IMG/VR virus record: IMGVR_UViG_2645727717_000001 | Strand: one strand, 5' to 3' | Origin: a virus | Taxonomy: Monodnaviria; Loebvirae; Hofneiviricota; Faserviricetes; Tubulavirales; Inoviridae | Length of the DNA stretch: 7,037 bases | Shown here: one piece after another, positions 261 to 7,037 of the stretch | How the letters are laid out: every line of letters starts with the position of its first letter | Numbering within the stretch: the stretch's first letter is position 1 | Program-made: the position numbers and the translations under genes | The notes under the pieces: generated by a model | What the model was told of the DNA's origin: nothing | Seen by the model: only the letters and a program-made list of their open reading frames with translations | Database searches by the model: none

Positions 261-393
261 TCTTAGCATGGGGCAGGGAATAACCAGGCTATTTCTCCAT
301 GCACAGGCCAATTATGAAAGAGGAGAGGCTTAAGTTCTTGAACCCTGAACGAATAACGACTACCAGAAAAGCACTTCGCATCACTCAGACATG

Positions 394-421
394 ATTTAAC
401 ATAATATACATTATGCGCACC
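394..421 (-). other. dif: dif chromosome-dimer resolution site (XerC/XerD target), exact 28-mer
   Basis: Plus strand 394..421 is ATTTAACATAATATACATTATGCGCACC, the exact reverse complement of the canonical E. coli dif GGTGCGCATAA-TGTATA-TTATGTTAAAT. XerD arm = 394..404, central region = 405..410, XerC arm = 411..421. Confidence 0.9.
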
Positions 422-547
422 AATGGTAAGGATGGCAGAATCTGGCGGGAATCGTTGACACTTGGCGTCAACTGGCAACTATCGACAGTGATTCAAAATC
501 ATCCGTTTCTCCAGACGAATCAGAATCAAATGTCTGTCAGCAGTAAG

Positions 548-581
548 TGAACGGCCTGACCTCACCAATCAGGCCTGTTCA
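548..581. repeat. Hairpin / inverted repeat (12-bp stem with one bulge, 9-nt loop)
   Basis: TGAACGGCCTGA (548..559), loop CCTCACCAA (560..568), TCAGGCCTGTTCA (569..581). Core GGCCTGA/TCAGGCC is a perfect 7-bp pair. No T-run follows on either strand. Confidence 0.5.
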
Positions 582-719
582 TCCAGTTGCAGTTGGTAAA
601 TCTGTACCTGATACATGAAACCTTCCCCAGAAATACAGCCACAATGTCAGATAAGATGAACGCTGCCGCGCCGAATCAGCTATAACGCTCAAAATGAAAA
701 CTGTACGGCTTGGCCAACC

Positions 720-755
720 CCGGACAGCAACAAAACGAGTTTTGTCACTGACCGG
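720..755. repeat. 36-bp imperfect palindrome with symmetric mismatches
   Basis: CCGG-a-CAG-ca-ACAAAAC-ga-GTTTTGT-ca-CTG-a-CCGG. The arms pair except at symmetric 1-nt and 2-nt positions, which would give internal loops in a single-stranded fold. Confidence 0.45.
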
Positions 756-801
756 AGTTTACGATAACTTCGTAAGCATTAAATTTTAGCGGCTAAAAAG
801 T

Positions 802-1050
802 TCACCACCACCATGCAAACGGCTTGTTACTGACAGGAAATGCGATACCGTCAGCATCACGACCACGCAAGACCTGATTAAGAAGCTTTCTGACTTCACG
901 GCGCTCTGGCCGGGTCATCATCATATTGCGATACCAGGACGGTGATTTATCAAACCACCTGGAACAACTGGTAAAATGTGAACTAACACGACGGTAAGAC
1001 TTCATGCGACCACTGGGGAGTCGATCGCGCACCCTGCTTTTTACAGACAT
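802..1050 (-). CDS. Hypothetical small basic protein (82 aa), unknown function
   Basis: Only open frame >=60 aa in the region between gIV and dif. ATG at 1048..1050 with GAGG 8 nt upstream and a 21-bp palindrome just upstream. Arg-rich with a C-terminal WWW. No similarity recognised by eye; could be spurious. Confidence 0.3.
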   Translation of the reverse strand: MSVKSRVRDRLPSGRMKSYRRVSSHFTSCSRWFDKSPSWYRNMMMTRPERREVRKLLNQVLRGRDADGIAFPVSNKPFAWWW

Positions 1051-1119: not shown

Positions 1120-1200
1120 ATATAGAGGCTCCGTGGTGAAACGTAAAATCCGGCTCTTGATGTGGCCATACCGGGGCTTAACGCACCCGCCACGGCCCCA
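1120..1200 (-). other. GC-rich dyad-symmetry region immediately downstream of gIV (candidate terminator or packaging/origin hairpins)
   Basis: GGGGC...GCCCC and CCGTGG...CCACGG inverted repeats, two TGGCCA palindromes. Position corresponds to the start of the Ff intergenic region. No clear U-tract. Confidence 0.3.
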
Positions 1201-2466
1201 TCAAAGCGCGCGAATAATATGAGCGGTCAGCAGAACATACATAATGCGTTGCTCATTACTGTCAGCTTTACTCCTGAAAAGCCAGCCAATCACCGGAATT
1301 TTACTGATAAACGGTACAGAACGGTCAGCATTGCTGGATGATGAATCAATCAGCCCACCAAGTAAGAGCGTCTGGCCATCCTTAATCTGAACTGTTGTCT
1401 GTATCTGACGCTGGTTCGTAATAATATCAGATGCCTGGTCATCGTTGCTGATGGAATCAGCGCGGGTATCAATAGTAAGTACAAGCTGGCCGTTCCCCAT
1501 AACAACAGGCGTCACCTTCAGAGATACGCCAACATCATGACGTTCAATGGTCTGAAACGGATTATTTACCCCGGCAGATTCACCCGTAACTTTACCCGTG
1601 ATAAAGGGTACATTTTTACCAACAGAAATATAGCCTGTCTGACCAGACTGGGTAAGAATCCGGGGCGTTGAAATCACCTTAGACCGGGAGTTACTCTGCA
1701 CCGCACGCAGGGATACGGCCAGAACATTACCATCAAAAATGCCAAAAGAGCCGCCGGCAGTCGACAATGCGCTACCCAATGCTGAAGTATTAAAGCCCCC
1801 TGCTACTTTATGCCCGGATGCAGAACCGGCTGCAAACGACAAATCAACACCATCCGACAGACTGGTTTCAAACATCAGCGACTGAATCAAAACCTGATCG
1901 CGGGCAACATCCACTGAATTGATGAAATCGGAAAGGACGGGAAGCAGCTCATCAGGTGCGGAAACAATCAGGGAGTTATTGCCAGGATAATCCACAACAT
2001 TACCCCCGCCATTAGAATCCAGATAAATTTTAACCAGTTGCTGAACATCAGACGATCGAACTTTTGTCAGCTTAAAATTTCTGACAGTAAACTCCACTGG
2101 CGCTGGCTGATAAGATGGCTCAGACGGGAAAGAGTCATAAGACCGAATATCAGCATCATCAAGGTCTGACGCCATCTGTGATGGTAATTTTGACGGCAAA
2201 GAGACTACTGCAGGATTACCCGAAAGCATGACAAATCCGTTAGCATTCAGTACAGATTTGAAGAAACTATCAATATTTGTGGGATTAACATCAGCATTAA
2301 ATACCGTTACGGTTCCTTTAACATCAGGATTAACAATAACGGGCTTGCCAGTTTTTGATGAATACCACTGGACAAATGAGCGAACGGATGAATTATTCAG
2401 GTTAACAGTTTCAGCAGAAACGCAAAAAGAATAAGTGAATAAGATAGCAATGAAAAATAAACGCAT
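1201..2466 (-). CDS. IV: pIV outer-membrane secretin for phage extrusion (421 aa)
   Basis: Collinear similarity to M13 pIV from the signal peptide through the C-terminal ...YVLLTAHIIRAL (M13 ...YVLVKATIVRAL), including GTVTVF, GGSFGIFDGNVL, PFITGKVTGESAGVNNPFQTIER, QTLLLGGL. Start taken at the internal Met (MRLFFIAILF..., ATG 2464..2466) with AGGAG 9 nt upstream; the longer track ORF would overlap gI. Confidence 0.93.
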   Translation of the reverse strand: MRLFFIAILFTYSFCVSAETVNLNNSSVRSFVQWYSSKTGKPVIVNPDVKGTVTVFNADVNPTNIDSFFKSVLNANGFVMLSGNPAVVSLPSKLPSQMASDLDDADIRSYDSFPSEPSYQPAPVEFTVRNFKLTKVRSSDVQQLVKIYLDSNGGGNVVDYPGNNSLIVSAPDELLPVLSDFINSVDVARDQVLIQSLMFETSLSDGVDLSFAAGSASGHKVAGGFNTSALGSALSTAGGSFGIFDGNVLAVSLRAVQSNSRSKVISTPRILTQSGQTGYISVGKNVPFITGKVTGESAGVNNPFQTIERHDVGVSLKVTPVVMGNGQLVLTIDTRADSISNDDQASDIITNQRQIQTTVQIKDGQTLLLGGLIDSSSSNADRSVPFISKIPVIGWLFRSKADSNEQRIMYVLLTAHIIRAL

Positions 2467-3568: not shown

Positions 3569-3910
3569 TCAAATCACCTTGTTTGCATAATCAAGGAATT
3601 TTTGTTTTAAATCGAAAACAAAAACGCTAATTCGAGTAATCATAATGACATTAACACAGGCCTGAAAATGGTCTGGTAAGACAGATGCAATTAAATGTGA
3701 AAAATCAGCAGGAAGGCCATTGTACATAACCTCAGCAAGATATTGCATTAAGAGAGTGACAGTTGTTGTAATTAATGCAACTAATGCTACAGCTATCAAT
3801 CCTGTTTTAGTCGCAAGGCGTGCGAGGAAGCTTGCCACATAGCCAATAAATAAAGGAACAAGCCCAATAAGAAAACGCAATAGTGCAGGAATACCTAATA
3901 ATAAAGGCAT
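3569..3910 (-). CDS. VI: pVI minor coat protein (113 aa)
   Basis: MPLLLGIPALLRFLIGL... vs M13 pVI MPVLLGIPLLLRFLGFL...; C-terminal FVFDLKQK vs FIFDVKQK. The ATG overlaps the gIII stop (TAATG). Confidence 0.9.
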   Translation of the reverse strand: MPLLLGIPALLRFLIGLVPLFIGYVASFLARLATKTGLIAVALVALITTTVTLLMQYLAEVMYNGLPADFSHLIASVLPDHFQACVNVIMITRISVFVFDLKQKFLDYANKVI

Positions 3911-5153
3911 TACTCACCTCCTTTACGAAGTAATGAGGTTAAAGACGTAAATACATACCAGAAGGTAAGGCAATAAAAAATCCATGAAAGCGCATCTTTG
4001 ATAGTAAGTAATTTATCGCATTCAATATCAATCTGATAAATTTCACCGGGGAAAATAACAAGTTCAGAACAACCATTACCATTAGGTAAACTAGGGAGCA
4101 TAGCACCTTTATTCAGGAATGCTTCCCATAAAGCACCATGAGAATCTTTAGCTATTCCTAATTCGGATTCAGCCAATGTTGAAGCACTGTCTAATTCGGA
4201 ATCCCCTTTCCCATAACGAGAATCACCGCCAGAAGGATCAGCAAAACGTCCGGCTCCGCGAGTAAGGTTATTTATAGCGTCACCAAGACGATTTATATTA
4301 TTTTTAGTCTGTTCATCAGCCGATTTTTTATCATCAGATGAGGTGTCTTTTTCTGTTAACTTATCATGAATCTCACTGGCCATTTTAGGTGAAGCACCTT
4401 CAATAGCTGACTGAATATCTCCTTTGGTAATACTTGAGCCATTACCACCTGAGTTACCGCCACCTGAGTTACCACCGCCTGTATCACCTCCTCCAGTATC
4501 ACCACCCCCCGTATCCCCGCCTCCAGTATCCCCACCATCGCCAGCAGGAGAAGAAGGCTTATCTGAAGGATCGGCTACGGTTCCGGTAGGCTTCCATGTC
4601 GCCGCACAAACAGTGCCATCACCCTGGCAAACAATGACGCCAGTGGCCTCATATTCACAACCGTTATAATAAATATAACGATCACCATCATAAGATAGAC
4701 ATTATTAAATACACCTTCTTCAGGAGGTTTAGCTTCACAAATTTCTTCAGGTGTAGGCTCGGAGGGTTTTTCATCAGGAATAGAACGCTGAATATCACCG
4801 ATAATATAAGCGGTTAAATTCCAGTATTTATCTTTCTGGCCCGGAGAGTCGCTGTAGGTACAAGCGTCAGAAAACACAAGACGGAATTCAGAGTTAGGCC
4901 ATACTCCCTCATAAGTTGGTTTAACCTGAGTAAAAACACCCTGAGCACTGTCTTTAGCCCCCTGACAGGCAGAAGCCTGCATAGCTGCATCAATATAATA
5001 AACAGTTTGTTTAGTGCCATCTTGGTTGGTTATTTGCTTACTTTCAGAATAGGCAGAGCTTTGAAAAGTAGATTTAGTAATGCTTTCCCATGAATCAGCA
5101 TGTGAAAAAGAAGAAATAAGAATAGCGGAAATAATTAATATTTTCCTTTTCAT
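3910..5153 (-). pseudogene. III: pIII adsorption / minor coat protein, split across two frames by an apparent 1-nt deletion near 4698
   Basis: Frame A (5153 -> stop 4575): signal peptide MKRKILIISAILISSFSHA, ~150-aa N-terminal domain, Pro/Glu-rich linker, ...[16 protein letters not shown], then nonsense. Frame B (open 4701 -> 3913): [39 protein letters not shown] (cf. M13 N1 DRYANYEGCLWNATGVVVCTGDETQCYGTWVPIG), Gly-rich linker, C-terminal domain ending ...LPSLP...IDCDKL...FWYVFTSL. Span is 1244 nt, i.e. 3n+2. Confidence 0.8.
4444..4533 (-). repeat. Six imperfect 15-bp tandem repeats encoding the pIII Gly-rich linker
   Basis: Minus strand GGGGATACTGGAGGC / GGGGATACGGGGGGT / GGTGATACTGGAGGA / GGTGATACAGGCGGT / GGTAACTCAGGTGGC / GGTAACTCAGGTGGT, encoding (GGDTG)x4 then (GGNSG)x2. 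Confidence 0.8.
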
Positions 5154-5160
5154 AATAACC

Positions 5161-5190
5161 CGCTTTAATAAAGGGGCAACGAGTGCCCCT
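5161..5190 (-). terminator. Rho-independent terminator between gVIII and gIII
   Basis: Stem AGGGGCA (5172..5178) / TGCCCCT (5184..5190) with 5-nt loop; on the transcribed minus strand it is followed by TTTATT. Same position as the central terminator of Ff phages. Confidence 0.6.
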
Positions 5191-5199
5191 GAGTGAATT

Positions 5200-5442
5200 T
5201 TAAACTGCTTTCGAAGAGAACTTTTTAAACAAACGAATGGCAAGACCCGCACCAACGACAGCGACAACAGCAGGCCATACTTTTGCAATAAGATCGTTTG
5301 CCTGAGTCAGCAGTGAATCCATTGCCTGACCTGCATAGTCAGTGCTACCCGTTGCGCCATCAGCAGCAAAACAACTTGCAGAAACAAAAAGTGCGGTTGA
5401 AGCCACAGCAATTTTAGATTTAATAACAGAAATGACTTTCAT
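5200..5442 (-). CDS. VIII: pVIII major coat protein precursor (80 aa)
   Basis: Signal peptide MKVISVIKSKIAVASTALFVSASCFA, acidic mature N-terminus ADGATG..., hydrophobic core, basic C-terminus LFKKFSSKAV (M13: LFKKFTSKAS). RBS GGAG 9 nt upstream. Confidence 0.93.
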   Translation of the reverse strand: MKVISVIKSKIAVASTALFVSASCFAADGATGSTDYAGQAMDSLLTQANDLIAKVWPAVVAVVGAGLAIRLFKKFSSKAV

Positions 5443-5984: not shown

Positions 5985-7037
5985 TTAATGCCAGTTACTG
6001 GCATGTGAAATACGGTTGTAATCAAAAATAAAACCTTTCTCATAAACCCATGTAGGGATTTGGGCTGGTTTAGCTTCAAGTGTTCTTACTAATGGAACAA
6101 CATTATTTGAATCAGGGGATTCACAATAAAAATTAATATCTATCCCGAAAGACAATAATTCTTTTCGGTGCCTGTAAAATGTTGGCTTTGGAAGCATTTC
6201 TTTCATGTTTGCGCCCTGCTTCCACAGTAAATATGTTGATTGTATTTTTCTCGGCAGTTTAACTATTTTTTCATCGGTCAAAATGGCATTTTGATTCATT
6301 TCTATTCTCCCTACATATTCAGAGAATAATTTGTTTGGAGTATCGATATTCCAGTTACTGCCAAGCGTAAGGTTTAAGTCAATTAATTCTGTTGTTCTTA
6401 GCGTCAATTCAATTCGTAATTTATCTTTAGACCAGTCAAGTAAGCCAGCTTTAACAAACTCTTCTGCTATCTGGTGTCCTTTTTTACCAGAAATATGCTC
6501 ATCATATTTTGAATAAAATTTCAGGCTCCACCGCCGGGAGTTTTTCCCTAAGTAAACAGTTCCACCTTTACCACAGGCGCGACCATGGCGAGTTTTAGCC
6601 TTGAATTCTGCGGCATATAGCCATGCGCGGACATTTTCCAGCGTTGATAATGAATACATGTAGTTAATATCAATGCGTGAGATCTTAAATTGCCCTGCCA
6701 TTACCTGACGATAGGATGGTAGATCATGAGGAATATGAAGTAATGCCAATATTCTTGCGTAAGCGGTTAATACCAGCCCCTGCAAATCATCGGAGCCAAT
6801 AACAGAATGCCCCTGAAGAAATTTTGACGGATTTCCGTCAATATAAAGATGAGTTGCCCGGCCCTCCCCGTCTGATCCAACAGATCGTACTTTCATTGTG
6901 GATTCGTATGAACCGCGAACGGTCAACCGCTTTACTGTTTCCCACTCCACTGCACCGTCAGCATCAACGCTGACGACACTACCGGCCGGTAACGGTCGGT
7001 GTGTGCAAGGAAGAATTCCGGTAAACCAGTCGATCAT
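5985..7037 (-). CDS. II: Rolling-circle replication initiator, gII equivalent (350 aa), likely of the RstA / Phage_CRI type rather than Ff pII
   Basis: Large ORF upstream of the gV analog beginning MIDWFTGILP...; no collinear similarity to M13 pII beyond MID. The ATG is the last 3 nt of the window, so an upstream extension cannot be excluded. Family assignment is from memory of N-terminal motifs. Confidence 0.75.
   Translation of the reverse strand: MIDWFTGILPCTHRPLPAGSVVSVDADGAVEWETVKRLTVRGSYESTMKVRSVGSDGEGRATHLYIDGNPSKFLQGHSVIGSDDLQGLVLTAYARILALLHIPHDLPSYRQVMAGQFKISRIDINYMYSLSTLENVRAWLYAAEFKAKTRHGRACGKGGTVYLGKNSRRWSLKFYSKYDEHISGKKGHQIAEEFVKAGLLDWSKDKLRIELTLRTTELIDLNLTLGSNWNIDTPNKLFSEYVGRIEMNQNAILTDEKIVKLPRKIQSTYLLWKQGANMKEMLPKPTFYRHRKELLSFGIDINFYCESPDSNNVVPLVRTLEAKPAQIPTWVYEKGFIFDYNRISHASNWH

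Follow-up and report, generated by a model that had tools for sequence, protein, structure and literature searches.

A strand-specific two-hairpin element near attP of filamentous prophages integrating at the Escherichia coli dif site, a candidate complementary-strand origin

The non-coding end of a filamentous prophage integrated at dif carries an element of about 110 bases, hereafter D, composed of two adjacent hairpins. An imperfect palindrome (720-755), singled out in a preliminary description of this region, is the core of this two-hairpin signal, which is common to a group of filamentous prophages with the dif of E. coli as their insertion site. By elimination and analogy, we tentatively propose that D is most likely the complementary (minus)-strand origin of these phages. 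The window, i.e., the whole stretch of DNA that was analyzed (7,037 nucleotides), contains the following features.

393 to 420, minus strand: chromosomal dif, regenerated at the prophage-host junction, with minus-strand sequence GGTGCGCATAA TGTATA TTATGTTAAAT.
421 to 612, minus strand: "A+B," an optional non-coding module of about 190 bp next to attP1, which holds hairpin 548-581 and weaker predicted hairpins.
548 to 581, no strand assigned: hairpin B, a 12-bp stem with one bulge and a 9-nt loop (−10.7/−10.6 kcal/mol, z −6.3/−5.6).
584 to 595, no strand assigned: (CAGTTG)2 tandem, judged to be a chance repeat and not conserved in relatives.
655 to 764, minus strand: element D, a two-hairpin module read on the phage (+) strand (covariance model R1, window score of 116 bits).
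665 to 715, minus strand: hairpin D2, from predicted fold and alignment, with stem GGCCAAGCCG / CGGCGCGGC, a 2x2 internal loop and a variable T-rich loop of about 33 nt.
716 to 759, minus strand: hairpin D1, the extended palindrome, with a 20-bp stem and a 4- to 5-nt loop (91.7% of cells paired).
757 to 777, no strand assigned: small hairpin TTACGA(TAACT)TCGTAA, just 5' of D1 in phage sense, terminator-like on the plus strand.
802 to 1050, minus strand: ORF82, encoding a small Arg/Trp-rich protein, often just upstream of D.
1157 to 1204, minus strand: putative packaging (morphogenetic) signal, a hairpin across the gene IV stop codon (−18.6 kcal/mol, z −4.7).

The first 392 positions are E. coli chromosome, and 4,467 of 5,426 complete genomes of this species have a match to them. 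They are followed by dif, whose XerC arm (410-420) is common to dif and the phage attP1, and the same phage-dif junction was seen in many loci. To the right of dif lies a UPphi-type filamentous prophage with its genes on the minus strand, in the order II (5985-7037), V, VII/IX, VIII, III, VI, I, IV (1201-2466), an 82-aa ORF (802-1050), and a non-coding stretch of about 380 nt (421-801). The packaged phage (+) strand is therefore the minus strand of the window, which we call the phage sense. The same sequence is found at 99.9% in NZ_CP144928.1, as a tandem prophage with a unit of 9,078 bp. The gpII proteins of the window and of phage I2-2 share 57% identity, and the match to I2-2 at the DNA level is restricted to gene I. 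The UPphi group has an I2-2-like core, shares genes II and V with YpfPhi, and integrates in tandem at dif (PMC7307601); the prophage of the window is a member of this group. Compared with NZ_CP144928.1, the attachment-protein gene III (3910-5154, minus strand) shows a 1-nt deletion around 4694 that leaves two ORFs (3910-4383 and 4575-5288), and the only other differences in the window are single-base changes at 477 and 5270. Two weak promoter-like matches (9/12) at 401-438 on the minus strand are directed out of the prophage, over dif and toward host DNA; the phage-dif junction gives rise to one of them, and their count is not above that of shuffles.

Both inverted repeats reported in the preliminary description are present and fold as single-stranded DNA. 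The hairpin at 548-581 (12-bp stem, one bulged base, 9-nt loop) reaches −10.7 kcal/mol on the plus strand (z −6.3) and −10.6 kcal/mol on the minus strand (z −5.6), and 0 of 200 shuffles folded as well. The values for the palindrome at 720-755 are −9.0 kcal/mol (z −3.9) and −10.0 kcal/mol (z −4.8), respectively, and its arms extend to 716-736 and 739-759. Among 200 dinucleotide-shuffled versions of 421-801, the most stable 46-nt hairpin had a mean of −7.5 ± 1.3 kcal/mol, and 3% reached −10 on the phage-sense strand, compared with −13.1 kcal/mol observed for 716-759 and −11.2 kcal/mol for 548-581. For the whole 421-801 stretch, z is −4.3 when the minus strand is folded and −3.0 for the plus strand. 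The palindrome had been described as having symmetric mismatches; this holds for the plus strand of the window (A.A and two A.C), but on the minus strand these positions are a T.T and two G.T wobbles, so that the stem is continuous on the minus strand only. The (CAGTTG)2 tandem also exists, at 584-595 and not at 582-594 as reported, and we dropped it as a feature: it is altered or missing in most relatives, which carry CAACTAACTGG (23 loci), CAACTTCAACTGG or CAACTGAAACTGG at this place or miss the stretch entirely. Perfect two-copy tandems with a unit of at least 6 nt are expected about 0.1 times per 380 nt, by simple arithmetic with uniform base composition.

In phage sense, D starts with D1, and D2 follows directly after. 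We analyzed covariation in 21 distinct versions of D, extending an earlier set of 16; these versions are related, so the counts of covariation and of strand asymmetry given here overstate the number of independent events. In D1, 7 of the 20 pairs show changes on both sides. The covariation score of D1 plus D2 was 0.077, compared with 0.048 in column shuffles (reached in 0 of 500) and 0.011 to 0.036 when partners were slid. The compensatory changes and a covariation score above both controls show that D1 is a real structure. Its forms range from perfect stems (L041, L031; L numbers designate the loci carrying relatives) through intermediates (L005) to compensated stems (L009, L021). The stem of D2 is nearly invariant; in L021, its internal loop is changed to two Watson-Crick pairs and one G-C pair to A-T. 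The small hairpin at 757-777 is replaced by other sequence in YpfPhi-type relatives. No T run follows 548-581 or 716-759 on either strand, as would be seen in intrinsic terminators. A search of D against Rfam gave a best match of 21 bits (gathering score of 60, E of 1.3), and a linear scan for −35/−10 consensus sequences, which cannot read a folded promoter, revealed no promoter-like pair in D.

The structure of D is biased toward one strand. Folding with DNA parameters favors the phage sense for D1 in 24 of 26 versions, by 3.5 kcal/mol on average, and for the whole of D in 25 of 26 versions, by a mean of 3.9 kcal/mol. Two adjacent wobbles of D1 (T.G and G.T) persist in 14 and 19 of 21 versions, respectively, or turn into Watson-Crick pairs, and A.C is found at these positions of the phage strand in one lineage only; the G.T wobbles of the phage strand correspond to A.C on the opposite one. 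This wobble pattern and the bias of stability toward the phage sense indicate that D is selected as a structure of the packaged strand, or of RNA of the same sense, and not as a duplex palindrome. The preliminary description had placed its structured elements in an intergenic region and proposed minus-strand origins, packaging signals and single-stranded attP sites as possible functions. The region is indeed the non-coding part of a dif-integrated filamentous phage, and the palindrome is a strand-specific single-stranded structure, which fits the first of these functions; the other two are located elsewhere, as described below.

Relatives were gathered in three ways, i.e., by gpII, by a conserved DNA motif and by the covariance model. 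We found D at 65 places (score of at least 80 bits) in 26 distinct versions. Its orientation relative to the phage genes is identical in all 65, and it lies 80 to 600 nt 5' of attP1. Besides attP, it is the only non-coding block common to all relatives. D was found only in dif-integrating phages, and the covariance model did not detect it in I2-2, which does not integrate. In most relatives, D ends 12 to 25 nt before the start codon of a variable cargo ORF, and the window keeps D without this ORF. Two loci, L020 and L034, have the initiator without D; gene IV is missing from them as well, and they look defective.

D accompanies very different phage genes: two types of gene II, two families of gene V and three types of gene IV/I assembly modules. 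Phages with D and a second type of initiator are found in L061, L067, L098, L077, L079, L094, L103 and L111. This second gpII is very distant from that of the window (BLASTP E of 0.003, with 25 to 33% identity over short stretches only), and the two score 29 and 244 bits, respectively, against the Pfam profile Phage_CRI. In L067, assembly genes of UPphi type (92 to 93% identity) are combined with the second initiator and a gene V of the Ff family; the exchanged block comprises the repressor, the regulatory region, gene II and gene V, and D, the cargo ORF, A+B and attP are unmoved. L098 joins the second gene II type to a gene IV of YpfPhi type and the first gene V type. The replication block is swapped as a module in L067, L098 and L061 relative to L001, in phages that are otherwise 84% identical. 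A site recognized by gpII would not be expected with such different initiators, gene V families and assembly modules, but a site recognized by host enzymes could be; the function of D therefore probably depends on host factors.

Matches to D were also present on plasmids of Klebsiella and Pantoea. We rejected these as independent single-strand signals, since they are decayed prophage remnants at dif-like sites of the plasmids. One of them, L052 4001-4330 (Klebsiella variicola plasmid pKGB1a), derives from a UPphi prophage by decay and joins the attP-proximal module directly to an inner part of gene IV. An element of about 5 kb was seen at dif-like sites in L021 (666-5612), L056 and the plasmid L053; it carries gene I, gene IV, a diverged D and a Cys-rich ORF, with no visible gene II, gene V or coat genes, and may be a satellite or a decayed phage.

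Upstream of D, ORF82 has 77 to 100% DNA identity in many D-bearing relatives and is absent from those of L005 and L067 types. ORF82 gave no Pfam match and a weak PHROG match to a family of unknown function; the absence of a Pfam match led us to discard the idea of a Xer activation factor (DUF3653-like). At 1057-1083 of the minus strand, a hairpin resembling a terminator, with a T6 run, extends up to the start codon of ORF82 and overlaps the ribosome-binding site of this ORF.

The packaging signal and attP, two of the functions initially considered for the flagged hairpins, map to other sequences. The hairpin at 1157-1204 is collinear with the annotated morphogenetic signal of I2-2 and has the same GGTGCGTTA..GCCC loop as the latter. 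A hairpin is present at the stop codon of gene IV in all phages whose gene IV is of I2-2 type, with a stem sequence that differs among them. Judging from these comparisons, the packaging signal of this phage is the separate hairpin at 1157-1204, and D is not. The packaging signals of I2-2, IKe and Ff resemble D in being long imperfect hairpins of the (+) strand, but their homolog is at 1157-1204 and D also occurs with unrelated assembly modules.

The attP is formed at the junction between prophage copies (L001 21395-21505). It carries GGTGCGCATAA-TGTACGACTCG-TTATGTTGAAA as well as a hairpin with an 11-bp stem, after which comes an inverted dif-like site with a 5-nt center; two inverted dif-like sites, with centers of 11 and 5 nt, thus surround a hairpin. 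In phage sense, this junction folds with −30.7 kcal/mol (z −7.7). The 11-bp-stem hairpin also resembles a terminator of genes of the reverse strand. YpfPhi and CUS-1Phi have been listed as CTX-type phages (PMC4246890), and the sequence of the attP junction predicts the CTX-type forked hairpin architecture for this prophage. The forked attP(+) of CTXphi is thus the system used by the phage group that carries D, but the flagged hairpins have neither XerC nor XerD arms. No dif-like sequence was found within 421-801, and the window contains only the XerC arm (410-420) of attP. Hence, D is not attP.

With packaging and attP located elsewhere, the complementary-strand origin is the host-dependent cis function of a filamentous phage that D could fulfill, and this is what makes it our preferred, if tentative, assignment. 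On the incoming single-stranded genome coated with SSB, the hairpins of D would keep their fold, an enzyme of the host (RNA polymerase or primase) would start an RNA primer at D, and this primer would serve for the synthesis of the second strand. Both the priming of DNA synthesis by D and the host enzyme in question are suggested by analogy with known systems. The position of D downstream of the packaging signal, as in Ff, supports this assignment; in L067, D is about 90 nt after the packaging signal on the packaged strand. The minus origin of Ff (hairpins [B] and [C] of f1/M13) shares several other traits with D: it consists of adjacent hairpins of the packaged strand in a non-coding region downstream of gene IV and the packaging signal, it is specific for one orientation, independent of phage proteins, and strongly structured compared with shuffles. 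The two differ in sequence, with no similarity by BLAST or covariance model between D and the origin region of M13, and no promoter mimic was recognized in D; with no promoter-like pair recognized by the linear scan, the RNA polymerase mechanism of Ff is not specifically supported. Unlike the Ff origin, D adjoins a Xer attP and moves among phages with different replication genes. The comparison with the origin region of I2-2 suggested in the preliminary description likewise gave no similarity by BLAST or covariance model.

A first alternative, which we consider unlikely, is that D is or contains the plus-strand origin, where gpII would bind and nick, with D1 or D2 extruded as a cruciform in the supercoiled replicative form. 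The plus origin must be common to phages whose gpII are 85 to 100% identical, and D is their sole shared non-coding block besides attP; the region upstream of gene II is not conserved, which favors D. We had considered an origin upstream of gene II at the "TTTTTCAATAG" motif and rejected it, since the phages have at least four immunity types in this region that cannot be aligned with one another and have no 9- to 10-mer in common. The nick site of Ff is TTAATAGTGG (PMC11765958), and the junction between the loop and the 3' arm of D2 in L031 and L010, TTAAT(T/C)GCGG, is loosely similar to this context within a hairpin loop. However, TTAAT.GCGG-like sequences are confined to these two versions, and the candidate nick motif differs elsewhere, being CTGATTCGG in the window. 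The argument for D as the plus origin, on the ground that it is the sole shared block, is weakened by its presence with the second, very distant gene II family and in the hybrids L067 and L098, where the initiator block was exchanged independently of D. Moreover, the strand asymmetry of D is unexpected for a duplex or cruciform site, and D1 covaries when gpII is nearly constant, which suggests that the structure is read rather than the bases contacted by a protein. The plus origin could instead sit inside gene II, as it does in the initiator genes of pT181 and phiX174. Reduced synonymous variation in gene II revealed a single clear dip, at nt 706 to 765 (around 6273-6332 of the window), where variation at the third codon position is 0.17 to 0.27 compared with a mean of 0.62 (33 gene II sequences); this dip coincides with the expected in-frame start of gene X. 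No Ff-like plus origin was found in phages with the second gene II type. Since the plus-strand origin was located nowhere, D is still a candidate for this function in phages with the gene II type of the window.

A second alternative, also improbable in our view, is that D1 and D2 act as RNA in phage-sense transcripts, as a 3' stabilizer or an RNase III-type processing site lying between the assembly operon and the variable cargo gene after D. An RNA hairpin fits the G.U-tolerant stems of the sense strand equally well. The 20-bp stem of D1, with its internal mismatch, is similar to substrates of RNase III, and the position of D, 12 to 25 nt before the start of the variable ORF in most relatives, would be in line with such a role. 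This reading is at odds with the window, which has D though the cargo ORF is missing, with the terminator-like hairpin lying upstream at 1057-1083, and with the lack of an Rfam match for D. Finally, it is very unlikely that D is a part of the integration module, as an accessory single-stranded structure aiding XerCD recombination at the folded attP(+): its restriction to dif-integrating phages (and absence from the non-integrating I2-2) and its fixed orientation 80 to 600 nt 5' of attP1 would be expected under this explanation, but the folded attP of CTXphi alone has been described as the substrate (PMC4246890), D has no dif-like sequence, and its spacing from attP is highly variable.

The complementary-strand origin, our preferred reading of D, leaves room for a more speculative proposal, to which we give a small chance: D and the CTX-type attP(+) could together be a portable "entry module." A second strand started at D would be extended around the circle in the direction opposite to attP, the attP hairpin would be the last part to become double-stranded, and this late duplex formation would give XerCD the longest time window for single-strand integration. 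If true, this would account for the constant place and orientation of D by attP amid the exchange of replication and assembly genes.

The second hairpin of the region, at 548-581, is of a different nature. It belongs to the A+B module, located between the cargo position and attP, which is present in relatives of UPphi, YpfPhi/CUS-1, L006, L067 and L020 types and absent from those of L005, L011, L033, L010 and L032 types. Several of the latter are apparently complete, and they include a circular 7.9-kb replicative form from Salmonella. No compensatory change was seen in the 56 predicted pairs of A+B, whose low diversity gives too little variation for a test, and hairpin 548-581 shows no strand preference. 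In YpfPhi-type phages, a 65-aa ORF, missing in the window, ends inside the loop of this hairpin. Given these observations (the absence of the module from apparently complete relatives such as the 7.9-kb form, no covariation or strand preference, and an ORF that stops within the loop), it is quite plausible that neither the hairpin nor the A module has a function in itself, both being a hitchhiking remnant, for instance the decayed 3' end of a cargo gene. Against this, the hairpin is far stronger than expected by chance and is invariant in most relatives, in modules that are otherwise 84 to 96% identical; the three altered versions still fold, with a new 3' arm and a larger loop in L034, loss of the bulge and gain of a G.T in L052, and one mismatch in L067. 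We regard it as no more than a stable hairpin, which may be an auxiliary single-strand signal. A 45-aa ORF on the plus strand (413-550) has its ATG in the XerC arm and its stop codon as the first triplet of hairpin 548-581; it is open in all versions, one of them with an in-frame replacement. We set it aside, since a promoter would not fit behind the terminator hairpin of attP.

Single-strand initiation signals (ssi) of plasmids and Frpo-type single-strand promoters are imperfect hairpins that act on one strand only and depend on host enzymes. D resembles them in its strand bias, in its conserved mismatches or wobbles and probably in depending on host enzymes, but the copies of D on plasmids are prophage remnants at dif-like sites and not signals of leading regions. 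Our search of the literature on YpfPhi and UPphi, and a further search, retrieved no description of D. It is therefore best filed as an undescribed element, whose closest known kind, by analogy, would be the minus-strand origin of Ff and, more loosely, the ssi signals of plasmids.

YpfPhi of Yersinia pestis, CUS-1 of E. coli K1 and UPphi of uropathogenic Enterobacterales are linked to virulent lineages, and we know of no cis-acting replication signal that has been mapped in them. D provides a concrete candidate for such a signal, as a 110-nt module with a defined structure. Its detection at 65 places also makes it a sensitive marker for these prophages and their remnants. If the linkage between D and attP is functional, the priming of the second strand would be tied to single-strand Xer integration in these phages.
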